A DNA stretch of 64,000 nt from an uncultured Clostridia bacterium (GCA_944381175.1 CALWKD010000020.1:22888-86887), one strand, 5' to 3'; shown: positions 47,967 to 64,000, counted from the first letter of the stretch. A program made the numbers and translations. The notes: generated by a model not told the origin, from the sequence alone.

Positions 47967-47994
47967 ATTATAATGCGGGGGGGGGAGTTGTCAA
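47967..47994 (-). promoter_or_regulatory. Consensus sigma-A promoter with a C9 (G9 on + strand) tract in the spacer
   Basis: Minus strand reads TTGACA-ACTCCCCCCCCCGCAT-TATAAT (16-nt spacer); G run at 47977-47985. Confidence 0.85.
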
Positions 47995-57386: not shown

Positions 57387-58319
57387 ATGATTGTCAAAGG
57401 AATTGATTTTTCAGAAAATCCAATTTTGCTCGCTCCAATGGCGGGCGTGACAGATGTGGGGTTTAGGTATCTTGCATCTTCTTTTGGTGCAGATGCAACA
57501 GTGACCGAAATGCTTTCCGCTCGTGCAATGGCAAACTGCACAAAGAAAACCGAATTTTTGACCTTGACGACGGAAGCGGAGAAGATAAAGATTGCACAAA
57601 TTCTTGGGCACGAAGTGGAGTTTATGGAAAAGGCGGTGAGGCACAGCCTTCTTGAAAAATTTGATGTTTTTGACATCAATATGGGCTGTCCTGCCCCAAA
57701 AATCGTCAAAAATGGCGAGGGCGGAGCACTTATGGACAACTTGCTTCTTGCAAGCAAAATTATCTCTGCGGTGAAAAACGCCACCGACAAGCCTGTTTCG
57801 GTCAAGTTTAGGAAAGGGCGAAAAACGGAAAACTTTTTGGAATTTGCGAGGATGTGCGAGGAGAGTGGGGCAGATTTTGTGACTTTCCACGCGAGGACTG
57901 TCGGACAAGGATACTCGGGCAAGGCGGACTATGAAGCAATCGCAACCGTCAAGGCAAAACTCAAAATTCCAGTGATTGGAAATGGAGATGTTGTAGGCAG
58001 GGAAAGTTTTTCACGGATGAAAAACACTGGCGTTGACGGAGTTATGGTGGGTCGCGGTGCAATGGGAAAGCCTTGGATTTTTGCAGAACTTAAAGGCAAA
58101 GATGTGAAAATTGATAAATTTGAGTGCGTGAAGACTCACATCAAAATTCTCAGGCAATATTTTGATGAAAATTGGCTCAAACTCTACATAAGAAAACATC
58201 TTTTGTGGTATGCTTCCGATTTGCCAATGTCCGCAAGTGTTAGATTGAGACTTGCCACTTGCGACAACATCGACGATTGTCTTGAGATACTTGGAAAGGT
58301 TTTTGAAGAGAATAGATAA
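57387..58319 (+). CDS. dusB: tRNA-dihydrouridine synthase
   Basis: LAPMAGVTD, DINMGCP, HART, GNGD, GRGAMGKPWIF. Confidence 0.93.
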   Translation: MIVKGIDFSENPILLAPMAGVTDVGFRYLASSFGADATVTEMLSARAMANCTKKTEFLTLTTEAEKIKIAQILGHEVEFMEKAVRHSLLEKFDVFDINMGCPAPKIVKNGEGGALMDNLLLASKIISAVKNATDKPVSVKFRKGRKTENFLEFARMCEESGADFVTFHARTVGQGYSGKADYEAIATVKAKLKIPVIGNGDVVGRESFSRMKNTGVDGVMVGRGAMGKPWIFAELKGKDVKIDKFECVKTHIKILRQYFDENWLKLYIRKHLLWYASDLPMSASVRLRLATCDNIDDCLEILGKVFEENR

Positions 58320-58386
58320 AAAGTTTTTCCAAATTGTTTTGAATTATTGGGCAAATGTTGTAAACTTTAGTTAAAGGATTTCCAAA

Positions 58387-59568
58387 ATGAAGAAAACGAT
58401 AAGAGATTTAAAGGGTTTAAAAGGCAAGAAAGTGCTTTTGCGATGTGACTTCAATGTTCCGCTTGACAAATACGGCGACATACTTGATGACACAAGGATT
58501 TATGCCGCTTTGCCTACGATTGAGTATTTGGTGGAGCACGAGGCAAAAGTCATAATCGTCTCACACCTTGGAAGGCCAAAGGGTTATGACAAATATTTGT
58601 CGCTTTTCCCTGTTGCGGTTTATCTTATGAAGTGGTTTCCAAACAAGGTTAAATTTGCCAGCGAACCAATAGGGAAAGAAGTTGATAGAGAGGTTGCAAA
58701 CTTGAAAAATGGAGAGATTTTGCTCCTTGAAAACATCAGGTTTGTGCAGGGTGAAGAAGAAAATTCGCCAAAACTTGTGGAAGAACTTGCAAAACTTGGT
58801 GATATTTATGTCAATGACGCTTTTGGTGTTTGCCACAGAAAACACGCCTCGACCTATGGCGTTGCAATAAAACTCCCAAATGCGATTGGTTTTTTGGTCG
58901 AGAAAGAGTTGAAGGTCTTTGAGGAAGCGTTCAAAACGCCAAAACGCCCATTTGTTGCGATTTTTGGTGGGGCAAAAATTGACGACAAGATAAACTTGAT
59001 ACGAAATATTATGGACAATGTTATGCAACAGGGAGACTCAATCTTGATTGGCGGAGGAATGGCATACACTTTCCTGCAGGCACAAGGGATCCAGATTGGG
59101 AAATCAATTGTTTCCTTGGACAAAGTTGACGAAGCGAAGAAGGTTTTGGCTGAAGCAGAGAAAAAGGGAATAAAAGTCTTGCTTCCAGTCGACCACGTTG
59201 CTCTTCTTAAAGAAAAAGACAAAGTTGTGAGGACGAAAAAACTCTCTGGAGATATGATTGGTCTTGATATTGGGAATTTGACAATCAAGATGTTTGTCAA
59301 GGAGATTATGGAGGCGAACCAAATTCTTTGGAATGGCCCAGTGGGCAAGTATGAGGACCCTCGCTTCAAAAAGGGCACGATGAAGATTGCGAAAGCGGTC
59401 GGCAAAAGCGTCGCTTACTCGATTGTTGGAGGCGGAGACAGCATAAGTGCAATAAATGCATCTGGCGTTGCCGACAGCGTAAACCACCTTTCAACAGGTG
59501 GCGGGGCAAGTTTAAAACTTATGGAAGGGAAACCACTTCCTGCGATTGAAGTTATTGATGAGGTCTGA
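58387..59568 (+). CDS. pgk: Phosphoglycerate kinase
   Basis: DFNVP, SHLGRP, LENIRF, NDAFG, GGGMAYTF, GGGDS, STGGGASL. Confidence 0.96.
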   Translation: MKKTIRDLKGLKGKKVLLRCDFNVPLDKYGDILDDTRIYAALPTIEYLVEHEAKVIIVSHLGRPKGYDKYLSLFPVAVYLMKWFPNKVKFASEPIGKEVDREVANLKNGEILLLENIRFVQGEEENSPKLVEELAKLGDIYVNDAFGVCHRKHASTYGVAIKLPNAIGFLVEKELKVFEEAFKTPKRPFVAIFGGAKIDDKINLIRNIMDNVMQQGDSILIGGGMAYTFLQAQGIQIGKSIVSLDKVDEAKKVLAEAEKKGIKVLLPVDHVALLKEKDKVVRTKKLSGDMIGLDIGNLTIKMFVKEIMEANQILWNGPVGKYEDPRFKKGTMKIAKAVGKSVAYSIVGGGDSISAINASGVADSVNHLSTGGGASLKLMEGKPLPAIEVIDEV

Positions 59569-59645
59569 TTTTTGAGGTAAGCGAAAGAGGAATTTCGGCA
59601 ACTTTTGTGGTAAAACAAGAATAAATTAAAGACGAGGAGAAGGTT

Positions 59646-60395
59646 ATGAAGAAAATTATAATCGGCAACTTCAAGATGAACACAACTCCAAGCGAGTTCA
59701 AGTCTTATGCAATGGCACTTGCGACCAAGACAAAAGGGACAAAAAATGATGTTATCGTCTGCCCTCCATACACGCATCTTGGCACGGCAAAGCAGATTCT
59801 TGCTGGCAGTCATATTTATTATGGTGCACAAAACATCTCAGAGGAGGAAAGTGGAGCATTTACTGGTGAGATAAGTGCAAGTATGATAAAAGACTTGGGT
59901 GCGGAATATGTCATTGTTGGACACTCCGAGAGGAGAGGAAAATTCAAGGAGAATGACAAAGTTGTAAACAAAAAAATCAAGACCGCACTTGCAAACGGTT
60001 TGAAAGTCATTCTTTGCGTGGGAGAAAATTTGCAGACAAGGACAAACAAGCAAGCGGCGATGTTTGTCAAAAAACAACTTGATGACGACCTCAAGGGCAT
60101 CTATGAAAACGAACTTGAAAGTGTCATCATTGCATATGAGCCTATTTGGGCAATCGGAACAGGGAAAAATGTCACTGTGACCGAAATTCATAAAATGACA
60201 GACCTTATCAGAAAGGAAATTGAATACCTGTATTCTGAAAAGGCTGGCAGAGGAATAAACATTGTCTACGGCGGAAGCGTAGGTTTGACAAATTACAAAA
60301 AACTGCTTTCAAATGATTTCTTGAATGGGGTTATGATTGGGAATATTTGTCTCGAAATTGACAATTTCACATTGATATGCAGAGAAAATTACTAA
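59646..60395 (+). CDS. tpiA: Triosephosphate isomerase (atypical C-terminal phosphate loop)
   Basis: NFKMN, GAFTGE, GHSERR, AYEPIWAIGTG, YGGSV. Confidence 0.92.
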   Translation: MKKIIIGNFKMNTTPSEFKSYAMALATKTKGTKNDVIVCPPYTHLGTAKQILAGSHIYYGAQNISEEESGAFTGEISASMIKDLGAEYVIVGHSERRGKFKENDKVVNKKIKTALANGLKVILCVGENLQTRTNKQAAMFVKKQLDDDLKGIYENELESVIIAYEPIWAIGTGKNVTVTEIHKMTDLIRKEIEYLYSEKAGRGINIVYGGSVGLTNYKKLLSNDFLNGVMIGNICLEIDNFTLICRENY

Positions 60396-60404
60396 AATGG
60401 AGAA

Positions 60405-61511
60405 ATGATGAATCATATTGCACTTTACAGAAAATATAGACCAAAGAGTTTTGAGCAGGTGATTGGACAAGACCACATCACAAAGACCTTGCAAAACCAA
60501 ATTATGAGCGACCAAATTGGGCACGCATATCTTTTCACTGGCTCTCGTGGGACGGGAAAGACGAGCGTTGCGAAGATTTTTGCGAAAGCGGTGAATTGCC
60601 AAAAACCAGTAAACGGCTCTGCTTGCGGAGAGTGTGAGGTCTGCAAGAGGCTCGAGCAAGAAAACGACATAAACATCATCGAAATTGACGCAGCGTCAAA
60701 CAACAAAGTCGATGACATCAGAGAGATTCGAGATAAGGTGAAATTTATGCCTGTTGGAGCGAAATACAAAGTTTACATCATCGACGAAGTTCATATGCTT
60801 TCCGACAGTGCCTTCAACGCACTTTTGAAAACTTTGGAAGAGCCACCGTCATATGTCATTTTCATTTTGGCGACCACAGAGGTTCACAAATTGCCACAGA
60901 CGATTTTATCGAGGTGTATTAGGTTTGATTTCAGATTGGTTTCGACCGAGACTCTTGTGAAACACTTGGCAAAGATATTTGACAAAGAGAATATAAAATA
61001 TGATGAGGAAAGCCTCAAAATCATTGCAAGTGCAGGAGAGGGAAGCGTCAGAGACACGCTCTCAATCGCAGATTCCATTGCCTCATATTGCCAAGGTGAC
61101 ATCACAAAAGAGAAGACGCTCTCAATTTTGGGTACAACTGACCACGATTTGATAATCAGTTTCTTCGACCAAATAAAAGAAAAAGATGTCGGACAAGTGC
61201 TTTCGCTTATTGACCAGATTGAGAAAGAAGGAAAGAATTTGGCGGTGTTTGCGAAAGATTTGTCTAAGCACGCGAGAAATCTTTTGGTTTGCAAATCGTG
61301 CAAAAATGCAAACGAAATTTTAAATTTGACCGATGATGTGTTTGAAATGTATAAACAGCAGTCGGAAAAGTTTGAGGAGAAAGATTTGATTCGATATATG
61401 CAGGTCTTCTCAAGTGCCGAAAGCGAACTTCGTTACACGCTCTCCGTGAGGCTTCTGCTTGAAACGACTTGCCTTACTGCAATGCTTGGACTTGACGCAA
61501 AAAAAAACTGA
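60405..61511 (+). CDS. dnaX: DNA polymerase III gamma/tau, zero-frame (gamma-length) product
   Basis: LYRKYRP, GSRGTGKTS, C..CGECEVC zinc module, EIDAASN, DEVHML, SRC. Stops right after an A9 run. Confidence 0.95.
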   Translation: MMNHIALYRKYRPKSFEQVIGQDHITKTLQNQIMSDQIGHAYLFTGSRGTGKTSVAKIFAKAVNCQKPVNGSACGECEVCKRLEQENDINIIEIDAASNNKVDDIREIRDKVKFMPVGAKYKVYIIDEVHMLSDSAFNALLKTLEEPPSYVIFILATTEVHKLPQTILSRCIRFDFRLVSTETLVKHLAKIFDKENIKYDEESLKIIASAGEGSVRDTLSIADSIASYCQGDITKEKTLSILGTTDHDLIISFFDQIKEKDVGQVLSLIDQIEKEGKNLAVFAKDLSKHARNLLVCKSCKNANEILNLTDDVFEMYKQQSEKFEEKDLIRYMQVFSSAESELRYTLSVRLLLETTCLTAMLGLDAKKN

Positions 61512-61843
61512 AGATTGAGAAAGATGTGACAAAACTCTCTGCAAATAATGTTTGGGGAAAGGTGGTGTTGTATCTGAAAGAACACAAAAAGGTTGCACTT
61601 CACGTGGCTTGCGGAGATATAACAAATGCACAAATTGAGGGAGACCGACTTGTGATTCGCTCCAGTGACGATTTCTTGATTGATGTGCTTGAGAATGGAA
61701 GAAGAGAGATTGAAACGGCTATCAGGTGGCAAGGGTTGGACTTGAAATTTGAGGTGGTGAAGTTTGAGAGTGTTGAGCAAAAATTGAACAAGGACATCAA
61801 AAAATTGCAAAACTTTTTCGGAAGCAGATTGACAATCGACTAA
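61508..61843 (+). CDS. dnaX: Probable C-terminal (tau-specific) part of DnaX, in the -1 frame
   Basis: The -1 frame is open from the A9 run (...K-L-K-I-E-K-D-V-T-K...). W..V..YLK...LH..C and the terminal KLQNFFG.RL.I resemble Firmicute tau C-termini. No good SD before GTG 61526. Confidence 0.7.
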   Translation: MKIEKDVTKLSANNVWGKVVLYLKEHKKVALHVACGDITNAQIEGDRLVIRSSDDFLIDVLENGRREIETAIRWQGLDLKFEVVKFESVEQKLNKDIKKLQNFFGSRLTID

Positions 61844-61987
61844 CTTTTCTTTTGGAAAAAAGAAAAGTTAGCAAAAGAAAATCGATGATTTTCGAGTTTT
61901 CTTAAAACAGAGAAGAAACTTTGAGATTTTGTTTAACAACAAAAAGGGTCTCGACCCTTGGAAAAAAGAAAAGTTAGCAAAAGAAAA
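61840..61987. repeat. REP-like palindromic composite repeat
   Basis: 30-nt direct repeat TTGGAAAAAAGAAAAGTTAGCAAAAGAAAA at 61852 and 61958; hairpin CTAACTTTTCTTT/AAAGAAAAGTTAG; palindrome AAGGGTC-TC-GACCCTT. Confidence 0.65.
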
Positions 61988-62191
61988 CCAACAATTTTTG
62001 AGATTTCTTGAAATATAAAAAAACACTAAAAATAATCAAAAAATATGAAAAATTAAATATTTTTTGTGGAAAAATGGCAATTTTTGATAAAAAATGACGA
62101 TTTGTAAAAATTATAAAAATAAAGAAAAACGACTAAAAATAGTCGAAAAAATAGAAAAAATTAAATACGGAATAAATTTTAGGAGGTTTAT

Positions 62192-62506
62192 ATGGCATAC
62201 GGATTTGGTGGATTTGGCGGAAACAATATGCAGGCACTTATGCGTCAGGCACAAAAAATGCAAGAGGATATGAAGAAGATTCGTGAGGAGATTGACGGCA
62301 CGGAGTACACATCAAGTGTTGGTGGCGGAATGGTTGAGGTCACACTTTACGGAAACCGCACTGTGAAAAGTGTCAAGATTAAGCCTGAGGTGGTTGACCC
62401 AGAAGATGTGGAGATGCTCGAGGACTTGGTTGCCTCTGCGGTTGGAGACGCATTAAACAAAATCTCCGCTGACGAAAAGGCAAAACTCCCAAACTTGGGA
62501 ATGTAA
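62192..62506 (+). CDS. ybaB: YbaB/EbfC nucleoid-associated protein
   Basis: MQALMRQAQKMQ, GGGMVEVT, DPEDVEMLEDLV; dnaX-ybaB-recR synteny. Confidence 0.94.
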   Translation: MAYGFGGFGGNNMQALMRQAQKMQEDMKKIREEIDGTEYTSSVGGGMVEVTLYGNRTVKSVKIKPEVVDPEDVEMLEDLVASAVGDALNKISADEKAKLPNLGM

Positions 62507-62540
62507 AATTGTGAGATTGCCACTTTGATAAAGGAAGATT

Positions 62541-63134
62541 ATGAGTGAATTTGACGAGCCGATTGAGAGGTTGATTGAATATTTCAGGAGTTTGCCAGGC
62601 GTGGGCAAAAAAACTGCTCAACGCTATGCTTTTTACATCCTCGAAAACAGCAAAGAAAAAGCACAAAATTTTGCGAATGCAATCGTGGAAGTGAAAGAAA
62701 AGGTCCGCCTTTGCAGTGTTTGCGGGAATTATTCTTCAAGCGAAATTTGCCCGATTTGCCAAAAGCGAAACAGAAAAATTGTTTGCGTTGTGCAAGAGCC
62801 AAAAGATGTGGTGTCAATGGAAAAAGTGAAAAGTTTTGATGGGGTCTATCACATTTTGTTTGGCACAATAAACCCTCTTGAAAACAAAGGACCAAACGAC
62901 ATAAGAATAAAGGAACTTCTCGCTCGCATCTCAAAAGATGGTGTGCAGGAAGTGATTATGGCAACAAACCCTGATGTTGAGGGTGAGGCAACTGCGATGT
63001 ATATTGCGAAAATTTTGAAACCGCTTGGCGTCAAAGTTACTCGCCTTGCACAAGGAATTTCAATGGGCAGTGATATCGAATTTGCAGACGAAATCACGCT
63101 TGAAAAAGCGCTCAAAGCAAGACAAGAAATCTAA
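62541..63134 (+). CDS. recR: Recombination mediator RecR
   Basis: LPGVGKKTAQR (HhH), C..C..C..C zinc finger, ATNPDVEGEATA (TOPRIM). Confidence 0.96.
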   Translation: MSEFDEPIERLIEYFRSLPGVGKKTAQRYAFYILENSKEKAQNFANAIVEVKEKVRLCSVCGNYSSSEICPICQKRNRKIVCVVQEPKDVVSMEKVKSFDGVYHILFGTINPLENKGPNDIRIKELLARISKDGVQEVIMATNPDVEGEATAMYIAKILKPLGVKVTRLAQGISMGSDIEFADEITLEKALKARQEI

Positions 63135-63154
63135 GGTGGCATTGCCACTTTTTT
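63135..63154 (+). terminator. Probable terminator after recR
   Basis: GTGGCA-t-TGCCAC followed by T6. Confidence 0.55.
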
Positions 63155-63252
63155 AATTTTCATTTTGATAAAATTTTTGAAGTAAAAAACACAAATAGGA
63201 AAAGTGTATTGCTTGCGAATTGTGATGCCAATTTGAAAAGGTGTCATGTTGC

Positions 63253-63281
63253 TTGACTTTTTTTATTGTGTTTGCTATATT
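63253..63281 (+). promoter_or_regulatory. Sigma-A promoter of argS
   Basis: TTGACT-17 nt-TATATT with an extended TG. Confidence 0.65.
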
Positions 63282-63316
63282 GTCGATATATCAGAGGATT
63301 TTTTGGAGATTTTGCT

Positions 63317-64000
63317 ATGGATTTAAAGAACGAAATTTTGAAAAAACTTGTAAAAAGTGTAAACGATTGCAATTTTGATGGTGCTGGAAGTCTCGTTGTA
63401 ACTTTTTCCAATCGTCCAGATTTGTGCGATTTTCAAACAAATTATGCACTCATCGTGGCAAAAAATATGGGGATGAAACCTATTGAAGTTGCCGAAAAAA
63501 TAGTGGAAAATATTGAAAAAAGCGAGTTTTTTGAGTTTTCTGTGGTTGCCCCAGGCTTTATAAACATCAAAGTGACGGACAAGGCACTTTCAGAATTTGC
63601 AAATTTTGTGAAGGCTGACAAAAACTTGGGCGTTGAGCAGGTCGAGAAAAAGAGATTCGTATTCTTTGATTATGGCGGAGCGAATGTCGCCAAGGAACTT
63701 CACGTGGGACATTTGCGTTCTCCAATTATAGGTGAGGCGCTCAAAAGATTGCACGCTGTTATGGGTGACAAGGTTTTGGCGGATGTGCACTTGGGAGATT
63801 TTGGACTTCAAATGGGGCTTACGGTGCTCCAACTTAAAGAGGATGGTTATCTTGATGCGTTTTTTGACGAAAATGTCAAAGATTACAGCAAAATCCCAAT
63901 GCAAGACATCACTCTTGACCTTTTGAATGACGAATATCCAAAGGCAAGCAAGCGTAAAGATGTGGACAAAGAATTCAAGAAAATGGCAGACCTTTTCACG
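63317..64000 (+). CDS. argS: Arginyl-tRNA synthetase, truncated by the window end (absent from the ORF track)
   Basis: Manual translation from ATG 63317: ...APGFINI...DYGGANVAKELHVGHLRSPIIGE...HLGDFGLQMG. Confidence 0.93.
   Translation, partial: MDLKNEILKKLVKSVNDCNFDGAGSLVVTFSNRPDLCDFQTNYALIVAKNMGMKPIEVAEKIVENIEKSEFFEFSVVAPGFINIKVTDKALSEFANFVKADKNLGVEQVEKKRFVFFDYGGANVAKELHVGHLRSPIIGEALKRLHAVMGDKVLADVHLGDFGLQMGLTVLQLKEDGYLDAFFDENVKDYSKIPMQDITLDLLNDEYPKASKRKDVDKEFKKMADLFT

Follow-up and report, generated by a model that had tools for sequence, protein, structure and literature searches.

The dnaX gene can give two products, gamma and the longer tau, through a recoding event at a run of A residues. 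In Thermus thermophilus the event is slippage on nine A (A9), as cited in the accessible portions of PMC3711429 and PMC5009743. An organisation in which tau is the product that needs recoding is already known from Antonov et al. 2013 (NAR 41:6514, PMC3711429). In that article, 17 genes from 12 genera carry -1 frame breaks, 12 of these genes with poly-A (nine with A10, Chloroherpeton with A9, and two Chlorobium species with A8 and A7), and slippage was proposed by analogy with Thermus. The corresponding part of Atkins et al. 2016 (PMC5009743) restates the dnaX organisation in two open reading frames (ORFs), cites unpublished work on Chlorobium, and remarks that the dnaX product in need of the shift can be swapped by the change of a single nucleotide. 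A 2022 preprint gives, in the portion available, only frameshifting, slippage and proteolysis as routes to gamma. The arrangement has seldom been documented, and the published cases of tau obtained by recoding rest on prediction. Here we describe a two-frame dnaX in 64,000 nucleotides (nt) of DNA from an uncultured Clostridia bacterium (GCA_944381175.1, CALWKD010000020.1:22888-86887), the whole of which is called the window below. This dnaX probably makes a gamma-like product by default and tau by -1 recoding, most likely through slippage of RNA polymerase.

A conserved A9 run between two reading frames

The frame-0 ORF of dnaX lies on the plus strand (60405..61511) and encodes 368 amino acids (aa) ending in ..GLDAKKN*. 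Its product is gamma-like and comprises clamp-loader domains I-III. Indeed, Pfam detected DNA_pol3_delta2 at residues 22-177 (170.5 bits for a cut-off of 27, E = 3.7e-50), DNAX_ATPase_lid at residues 185-229 (49.2 bits, cut-off 27, E = 4.3e-13) and DNA_pol3_gamma3 at residues 233-356 (50.3 bits, cut-off 24.4, E = 2.8e-13). The junction sequence is GAC GCA AAA AAA AAC TGA. The A9 run, which is the proposed recoding site, occupies 61499..61507 on the plus strand in the frame-0 phase GCA AAA AAA AAC, and the TGA that ends the gamma-like product (61509..61511, plus strand) comes directly after the run and a single C (61508). The -1 frame opens 13 nt 5' of this stop and stays open from 61496 to a TAA at 61841-61843. 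Both frames are open in the overlap at 61496..61511 (plus strand), and a change of frame must fall there. Downstream, the -1 frame encodes the tau-specific extension (61508..61843, plus strand), made of 111 codons and the TAA. One added A in the message would lead to a product of 368 + 111 = 479 aa with the junction ..DAKKKLKIEK... An initial annotation of this DNA had placed the A9 at the same position, with a slippery heptamer before the TGA and products of 368 and about 479 aa, and the sequence and ORFs agree with it.

The run and the frame break were found again in relatives. All but one of the 25 genus genomes searched, that of the window included, yielded the extension, and the exception is 89% complete. 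In all 24 loci the N-terminal part of DnaX measures 365-372 aa and terminates just past a run of exactly nine A and a C, the extension being in the -1 frame; TGA or TAA stands immediately behind A9C in 23 of them. Three additional genus genomes displayed the identical arrangement (3/3). When prokaryote genomes were scanned with each species represented once, 79 of the best 80 loci had both A9 and the -1 arrangement. Of the 80, 14 were duplicates of loci already in the genus set, and the stop immediately followed A9C in 77 of the 79. In total, all but one of 107 related loci have A9 (106 loci, 92 distinct junction sequences), at identities ranging down to 65% for the N-terminal part of DnaX and 41% for the extension. 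The site is conserved to the single base across about a hundred species-level genomes. These related loci come from uncultured Clostridia, three of them labelled Candidatus Caccovivens, and the sequencing runs containing the stretch are animal-gut metagenomes, mostly from chicken. In the 27-sequence alignment of the genus, A9 and the C and T behind it are invariant and nothing else is. The wobble A of the codon preceding AAA AAA AAC is kept while the amino acid changes (GCA, GTA, TCA, ACA).

The sole exception among the 107 loci is L151, from the species representative of Candidatus Caccovivens faecavium. It carries A10 (1491-1500) and an uninterrupted tau of the 480-aa class that reads ..DAKKKLKIE.., which is either a natural flip of polarity or a homopolymer error of its assembly. 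Logan DNA contigs of the same species as the window, from runs X5 (record 12) and X4 (record 6), have A9 across the site. The dnaX A9 site is real and strictly conserved, and is no assembly error. The initial annotation had proposed a reversed polarity, with gamma by default and tau by recoding; this is supported, since every outcome that it had named as refuting turned out the other way: the frame stays broken in the other members of the genus, the independent DNA assemblies have A9, not A10, and the extension, as described below, is homologous to the C-terminal end of full-length DnaX and has no conserved start.

The genome strongly avoids long runs of A or T, and the A9 of dnaX is far from a chance occurrence. 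The window contains one A9/T9 run, against 24.3 +/- 7.7 expected from 100 dinucleotide shuffles, all 100 of which contained at least one. The complete set in the 1.08-Mb genome (38% G+C) amounts to 16 A9/T9 runs, with no longer A/T run. Only that of dnaX links two long same-strand open frames, the others being intergenic or located at gene ends.

A separate observation concerns the G/C runs of the genome. Nine G9/C9 and one C8 were counted, lengths of 6-8 being otherwise nearly absent (one G6); that nine of the ten long runs measure exactly 9 is an oddity. Six of the ten are placed exactly between TTGACA-like -35 and TAnAAT-like -10 hexamers. One such tract, on the window's minus strand at 47977-47985 (G000:C20:70864-70872), reads TTGACA act C9 gcat TATAAT and is followed by AAGGAG and a 306-aa ORF. 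These runs look like promoter-spacer homopolymer tracts, possibly of phase-variable promoters.

The tRNA set of the genome was also examined. ARAGORN reported 38 tRNAs, among them tRNA-Lys UUU and CUU and tRNA-Asn GUU, and no unusual tRNA. It did not find tRNA-Ser(GCU), tRNA-Ile(GAU) and several others, which may stem from the draft state of the genome (21 contigs, 97.7% complete) and not from true absence. Use of TGA as a sense codon in dnaX was considered and ruled out: more frame-0 stops occur within about 40 codons downstream, the only tRNA-Trp is the CCA species, and there is no suppressor tRNA.

The tau-specific extension

The alignment of the extension from 24 species (A1) has 17 invariant columns and a mean column identity of 57%. 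Its profile gave 162 matches at E <= 0.001 in 1.84 billion representative proteins. Among the 150 matches listed, all but seven were 56-236 aa long, and five of the seven longer ones were examined. Two of these are full DnaX proteins with DNA_pol3_delta2, lid and gamma3 domains (P0133, 507 aa; P0142, 488 aa), in which the extension domain forms the last 105 residues or so. In the other three (P0035, P0101 and P0136), DnaX domain III is followed by the extension domain at the C-terminal end. The profile also matched the in-frame C-terminal end of DnaX proteins of 473-587 aa in sister-genus loci. Judged by this homology to the C-terminal end of uninterrupted DnaX, the extension is the true tau C-terminus, which is what the initial annotation had read from its appearance. 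The genome (G000) holds one copy of the domain. Gene callers miss the two-frame dnaX, and the lengths of the profile matches fit an extension called as a separate ORF. Thus, from the shortness of these matches, dnaX is probably recorded as truncated in this lineage.

Pfam has no model for the extension: searches with the single sequence and with all 24 members gave nothing below E = 0.001 (best 0.0047, Arcadin_1, in one member), and a sequence-profile search of the PDB gave chance-level matches only (E >= 0.48). A single-sequence query of the extension against 16 genomes from 16 other families of the order had no match, a result that shows only the limit of such a query. In the AlphaFold model (AF2), the core of the extension (approximately residues 12-88, 61541..61771, plus strand) is predicted to fold in the manner of DnaA domain I, DciA and tau domain V, with a mean predicted local distance difference test score (pLDDT) of 83.6. 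Foldseek found no PDB match to the extension model at E <= 0.001; the tau structure 2aya ranked 31 with an E of 0.36. By VIA-align, the model matched DnaA domain I with Z scores of 10.1 (4tps_D), 8.8 (2e0g) and 7.5, DciA (7ykm) with a Z of 7.1, and E. coli tau (5fku_E) weakly, with a Z of 4.4 and a root-mean-square deviation of 3.2 over 71 residues. Because DnaA-domain-I-type folds match best and E. coli tau, the domain V of which we take to be Pfam DNA_pol3_tau_5, matches weakly, the fold alone is no proof of a tau domain V; it is the in-frame relatives that identify the extension as the C-terminus of tau. The C-terminal domain of tau tethers the replicase in other bacteria, and a binding function is presumed from homology for the extension as well.

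Right after the tau stop, the window contains a perfect 12-bp A/T-rich hairpin (61842-61869: aacttttctttt ggaa aaaagaaaagtt) with no T-run behind it. Its 3' half with the flank (ggaaaaaagaaaagttagcaaaagaaaa) is repeated about 110 nt downstream (61958-61990), within the 350-nt spacer ahead of the next ORF (62192, 104 aa). A search of Rfam with window 58000-64000 gave no match at E <= 0.1.

Proposed polymerase slippage and its alternatives

Standard decoding would halt at the TGA after A9 and give the 368-aa gamma-like subunit, and the 479-aa tau would be reached solely by a move to the -1 frame inside the run. In the mechanism that we propose, RNA polymerase would realign on the A9/T9 hybrid and add one A, and the resulting A10 mRNA would be translated normally through the junction to yield tau. 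Transcripts with A9, A8 or A11 would each yield the gamma-like product. Both the tau:gamma product ratio and the agent of the shift, most likely RNA polymerase and not the ribosome, are inferred. Slippage is probably the main route.

With nine residues, the run is long enough for a slippage site, which calls for some 8-9 or more consecutive A or T in the template. Two further points speak for the proposed reading, namely the avoidance of long A/T runs in this genome and, as in Thermus, the A8-A10 run found at the corresponding place in 12 of the 24 sister genera with tau in frame. The surroundings of the run were searched for stimulators of ribosomal frameshifting. RNAalifold detected 0 conserved pairs from -60 to +90 nt around the run in 27 genus sequences, and single-sequence folds in this region gave scattered hairpins with no shared position. 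Downstream of the run, the z score of the minimum free energy of folding had a median of -0.9 over the 92 junctions. A core resembling a Shine-Dalgarno (SD) element was present within 30 nt upstream in 22 of these 92 junctions, at scattered positions. Therefore, the elements that stimulate the shift in E. coli dnaX are not conserved here. An RNA-library contig of run X19 (578 nt, depth 3.8) displayed A10 at the site, which is a weak hint of transcriptional slippage. It is the only RNA contig to span the site, the contig of run X20 ending short of it at 61333. The initial annotation had seen no strong stimulatory hairpin, and this holds; the slippage that it had preferred to a ribosomal shift is made plausible by the lack of conserved structure and SD element and by the A10 contig, but is not proven.

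Several points weigh against slippage. The X19 sequence is a single contig of low depth, and its strain shows 14 differences from the window over 577 positions; a difference in a single contig under depth 5 is possibly an error, the RNA library may contain DNA, and the strain could have A10 in its DNA, like L151. Moreover, the phase nnA AAA AAA AAC followed by a stop presents two canonical -1 heptamers, A_AAA_AAA and A_AAA_AAC, and the adjacent frame-0 stop could itself stimulate shifting. Finally, four sister genera have A6 only, which is short for polymerase slippage, so that ribosomes of this family may shift there. These points lead to the alternative of a programmed -1 ribosomal frameshift on A9 mRNA, in which tRNAs would slip at A_AAA_AAA/A_AAA_AAC with the help of the adjacent stop. 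The two heptamers overlap in phase as X_XXY_YYZ sites, the wobble A of the preceding codon is retained irrespective of the amino acid, the stop stands behind A9C in nearly every locus of both collections, and the genome has tRNA-Lys(UUU) and tRNA-Asn(GUU). In the four A6 genera a heptamer is likewise followed by a stop, the -1 frame opening 10 nt before it in L049 and L077. However, neither a downstream stem-loop or pseudoknot nor an upstream SD-like element is conserved, and in E. coli the heptamers A_AAA_AAC and A_AAA_AAA shift much less readily than A_AAA_AAG does, according to the accessible portion of PMC5009743. The phase of the run also differs in other genera (AAA AAA AAA CGG in L044 and L039), the stop is 1-5 codons off in L025, L081, L036 and L044, and A10 was seen in the RNA contig. 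A ribosomal shift as the source of tau is a serious candidate, though an unlikely one.

Readings that involve no recoding are very improbable even when taken together. The extension might be a separate small protein translated from an internal start, the gene being split. Two sister genera (g67 and g51) do have the domain behind an upstream stop with its own SD and start, in frames that vary, and the window itself has a 105-aa ORF beginning with a GTG at 61526. Against this, no start codon is conserved across the 24 genus loci, in keeping with the initial annotation, which had noted an extension without an SD of its own. The first ATG, GTG or TTG of the -1 frame lies 2-51 codons past the run, at codon 17 or beyond in 9 of the 24 loci, which is within or beyond the conserved WGKVV motif, and the GTG/TTG at codon 6 is absent from L006 and L008. 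In 24/24 loci the -1 frame remains open when followed back over the run, and its codon periodicity starts at the run, with the first codon after it: column entropies at codon positions 1/2/3 were 0.73/0.69/1.12 in the first six codons past the run, the same pattern as in the frame-0 codons upstream (1.03/0.77/1.61). An internal start would also leave the invariance of A9 unexplained, and we regard it as highly improbable. Variation of the DNA itself, with A9 and A10 interchanging in the population and turning tau off and on, would be in line with the mutability of A-runs through replication slippage and with the existence of an A10 relative. A mixture of lengths would then be expected among assemblies, yet all but one of the related loci have A9; in addition, tau is essential and its C-terminal domain is present in a single copy, so that A9 cells would still be in need of recoding. 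Phase variation is accordingly rated a shade lower than an internal start. The lowest rating goes to the possibility that the gene is decaying or that sequencing or assembly went wrong, with A10 and an ordinary in-frame tau in the actual DNA. Homopolymers are error-prone, L151 has A10 with tau in frame, and the assembly of the window holds no run longer than 9 of any base. However, the A9 loci come from many independent assemblies, A9 is also read across the site in two further DNA assemblies of this species, and both gene parts are under purifying selection. A10 and A11 occur in other genera of the collection, so run length is not capped there.

If tau is indeed made by polymerase slippage or by another form of recoding, an essential replication protein of this clade would be obtainable only via a programmed "error" in its expression.

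The junction across the family and in known systems

The gene dnaX was found in 150/150 sampled genomes of the family (58 genera), with an open frame of either about 365-420 aa or about 480-600 aa. One genome from each of 57 sister genera was then classified by script, and seven loci were reassigned by eye: L026, L029, L033 and L045 were taken out of the classes, L054 was moved to the +1 class, and L057 and L073 were moved to the split genes. Tau is in frame in 24 genera, of which 12 carry A8-A10 immediately behind domain III, with nearby stops in both other frames, and the other 12 have no such run. The type of the window, with at least nine A and tau in the -1 frame, was encountered in 17 genera, with A9, A10 and A11 represented; one of its loci, L039, had no profile match. 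In four genera an A6 heptamer and stop (tcA AAA AAC stop) precede tau in the -1 frame, in six tau is in the +1 frame, in two the gene is split with an SD and start of its own, and four were placed in no class. Ten in-frame loci (L040, L042, L047, L048, L052, L053, L056, L067, L068 and L074) have A9 or A10 at residues ~362-396 with stops 0-9 codons off in both other frames. They are of the Thermus type, with a polarity opposite to that of the window.

With congeners added, the +1 class comprised 13 loci. Eight of these (L030, L054, L059, L069, L075, L085, L089 and L090) share nnG GTG nnn CCC stop, in which the spacer codon and the stop vary (TGA, TAA or TAG, with AGT TGA in L059). All eight have the C-terminal domain of tau in the +1 frame, and in seven of them no start occurs within its first 15 codons. 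A second type, TTT CCC AGN TAA, was seen in four loci of one genus (L072, L086, L087 and L088), which have no GGTG; the +1 frame opens 14-26 nt before the stop, and TTT_C or CCC_A are the candidate shift codons. The remaining locus fits neither motif clearly. In the split genes (L073 and L094-L096 in g67; L057, L092 and L093 in g51), the tau domain forms a small ORF of its own, equipped with an SD-like element and with an ATG or GTG at or just past the dnaX stop; its frame relative to dnaX is +1 or -1, depending on the species. The variety of junction states in the family was unexpected. The states are separated by single-base changes at one spot, in line with the remark of Atkins et al. 2016 on the effect of one nucleotide. 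That the family has repeatedly rebuilt its tau/gamma junction, through at least five states plus the split gene and including a candidate +1 frameshift similar to that of prfB, seems to us somewhat better than an even bet. Were this so, the family would be a natural series in which transcriptional and translational recoding, in either direction, are interchangeable for setting one protein ratio. Since the clade offers one-base variants (A9 versus A10) and variants with the opposite shift, control of the tau:gamma ratio and the interchangeability of polymerase and ribosome are directly testable. A +1 frameshift in dnaX, or a case in Clostridia, was not found in the literature searched, most subscription journals being outside its coverage.

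The +1 sites concern sister genera only and not the window. Their GGTG-N3-CCC-stop resembles the +1 site of prfB (release factor 2), which consists of an SD-like element, a 3-nt spacer, CUU and UGA. They differ from it in the gene, in a P-site codon that is CCC instead of CUU, and in a stop that can be TGA, TAA or TAG.

Like that of E. coli, the dnaX of the window has its junction behind domain III and a slippery sequence rich in A, and the direction is -1. In E. coli, however, the shift yields gamma and takes place on A_AAA_AAG, with an SD ahead of the site and a stem-loop behind it, whereas here the shift would yield tau. Furthermore, the stimulators are not conserved here, the last codon is AAC instead of AAG, and the genome has both tRNA-Lys species. 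The likeness to Thermus thermophilus is closer in the run itself, an A9 at the end of domain III from which two products of one gene would arise by the proposed polymerase slippage. The polarity is reversed, since in Thermus tau is in frame and gamma results from slippage, whereas here gamma is in frame and tau would result from slippage. Among the 24 sister genera with tau in frame, 12 resemble the Thermus arrangement. Finally, the organisation is that of the two-ORF dnaX of Antonov et al., with a frame-0 stop right after the gamma part, the tau part in the -1 frame and poly-A at the junction. Unlike Chloroherpeton and Chlorobium, the genera named in the accessible part of that work, the bacteria considered here are uncultured gut Clostridia with small genomes; the A9 run and the very short tau extension (111 aa) also set the window's dnaX apart from the cases given there. 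Altogether, tau by recoding is an organisation already in print, and what is new here is a large new lineage that has it.
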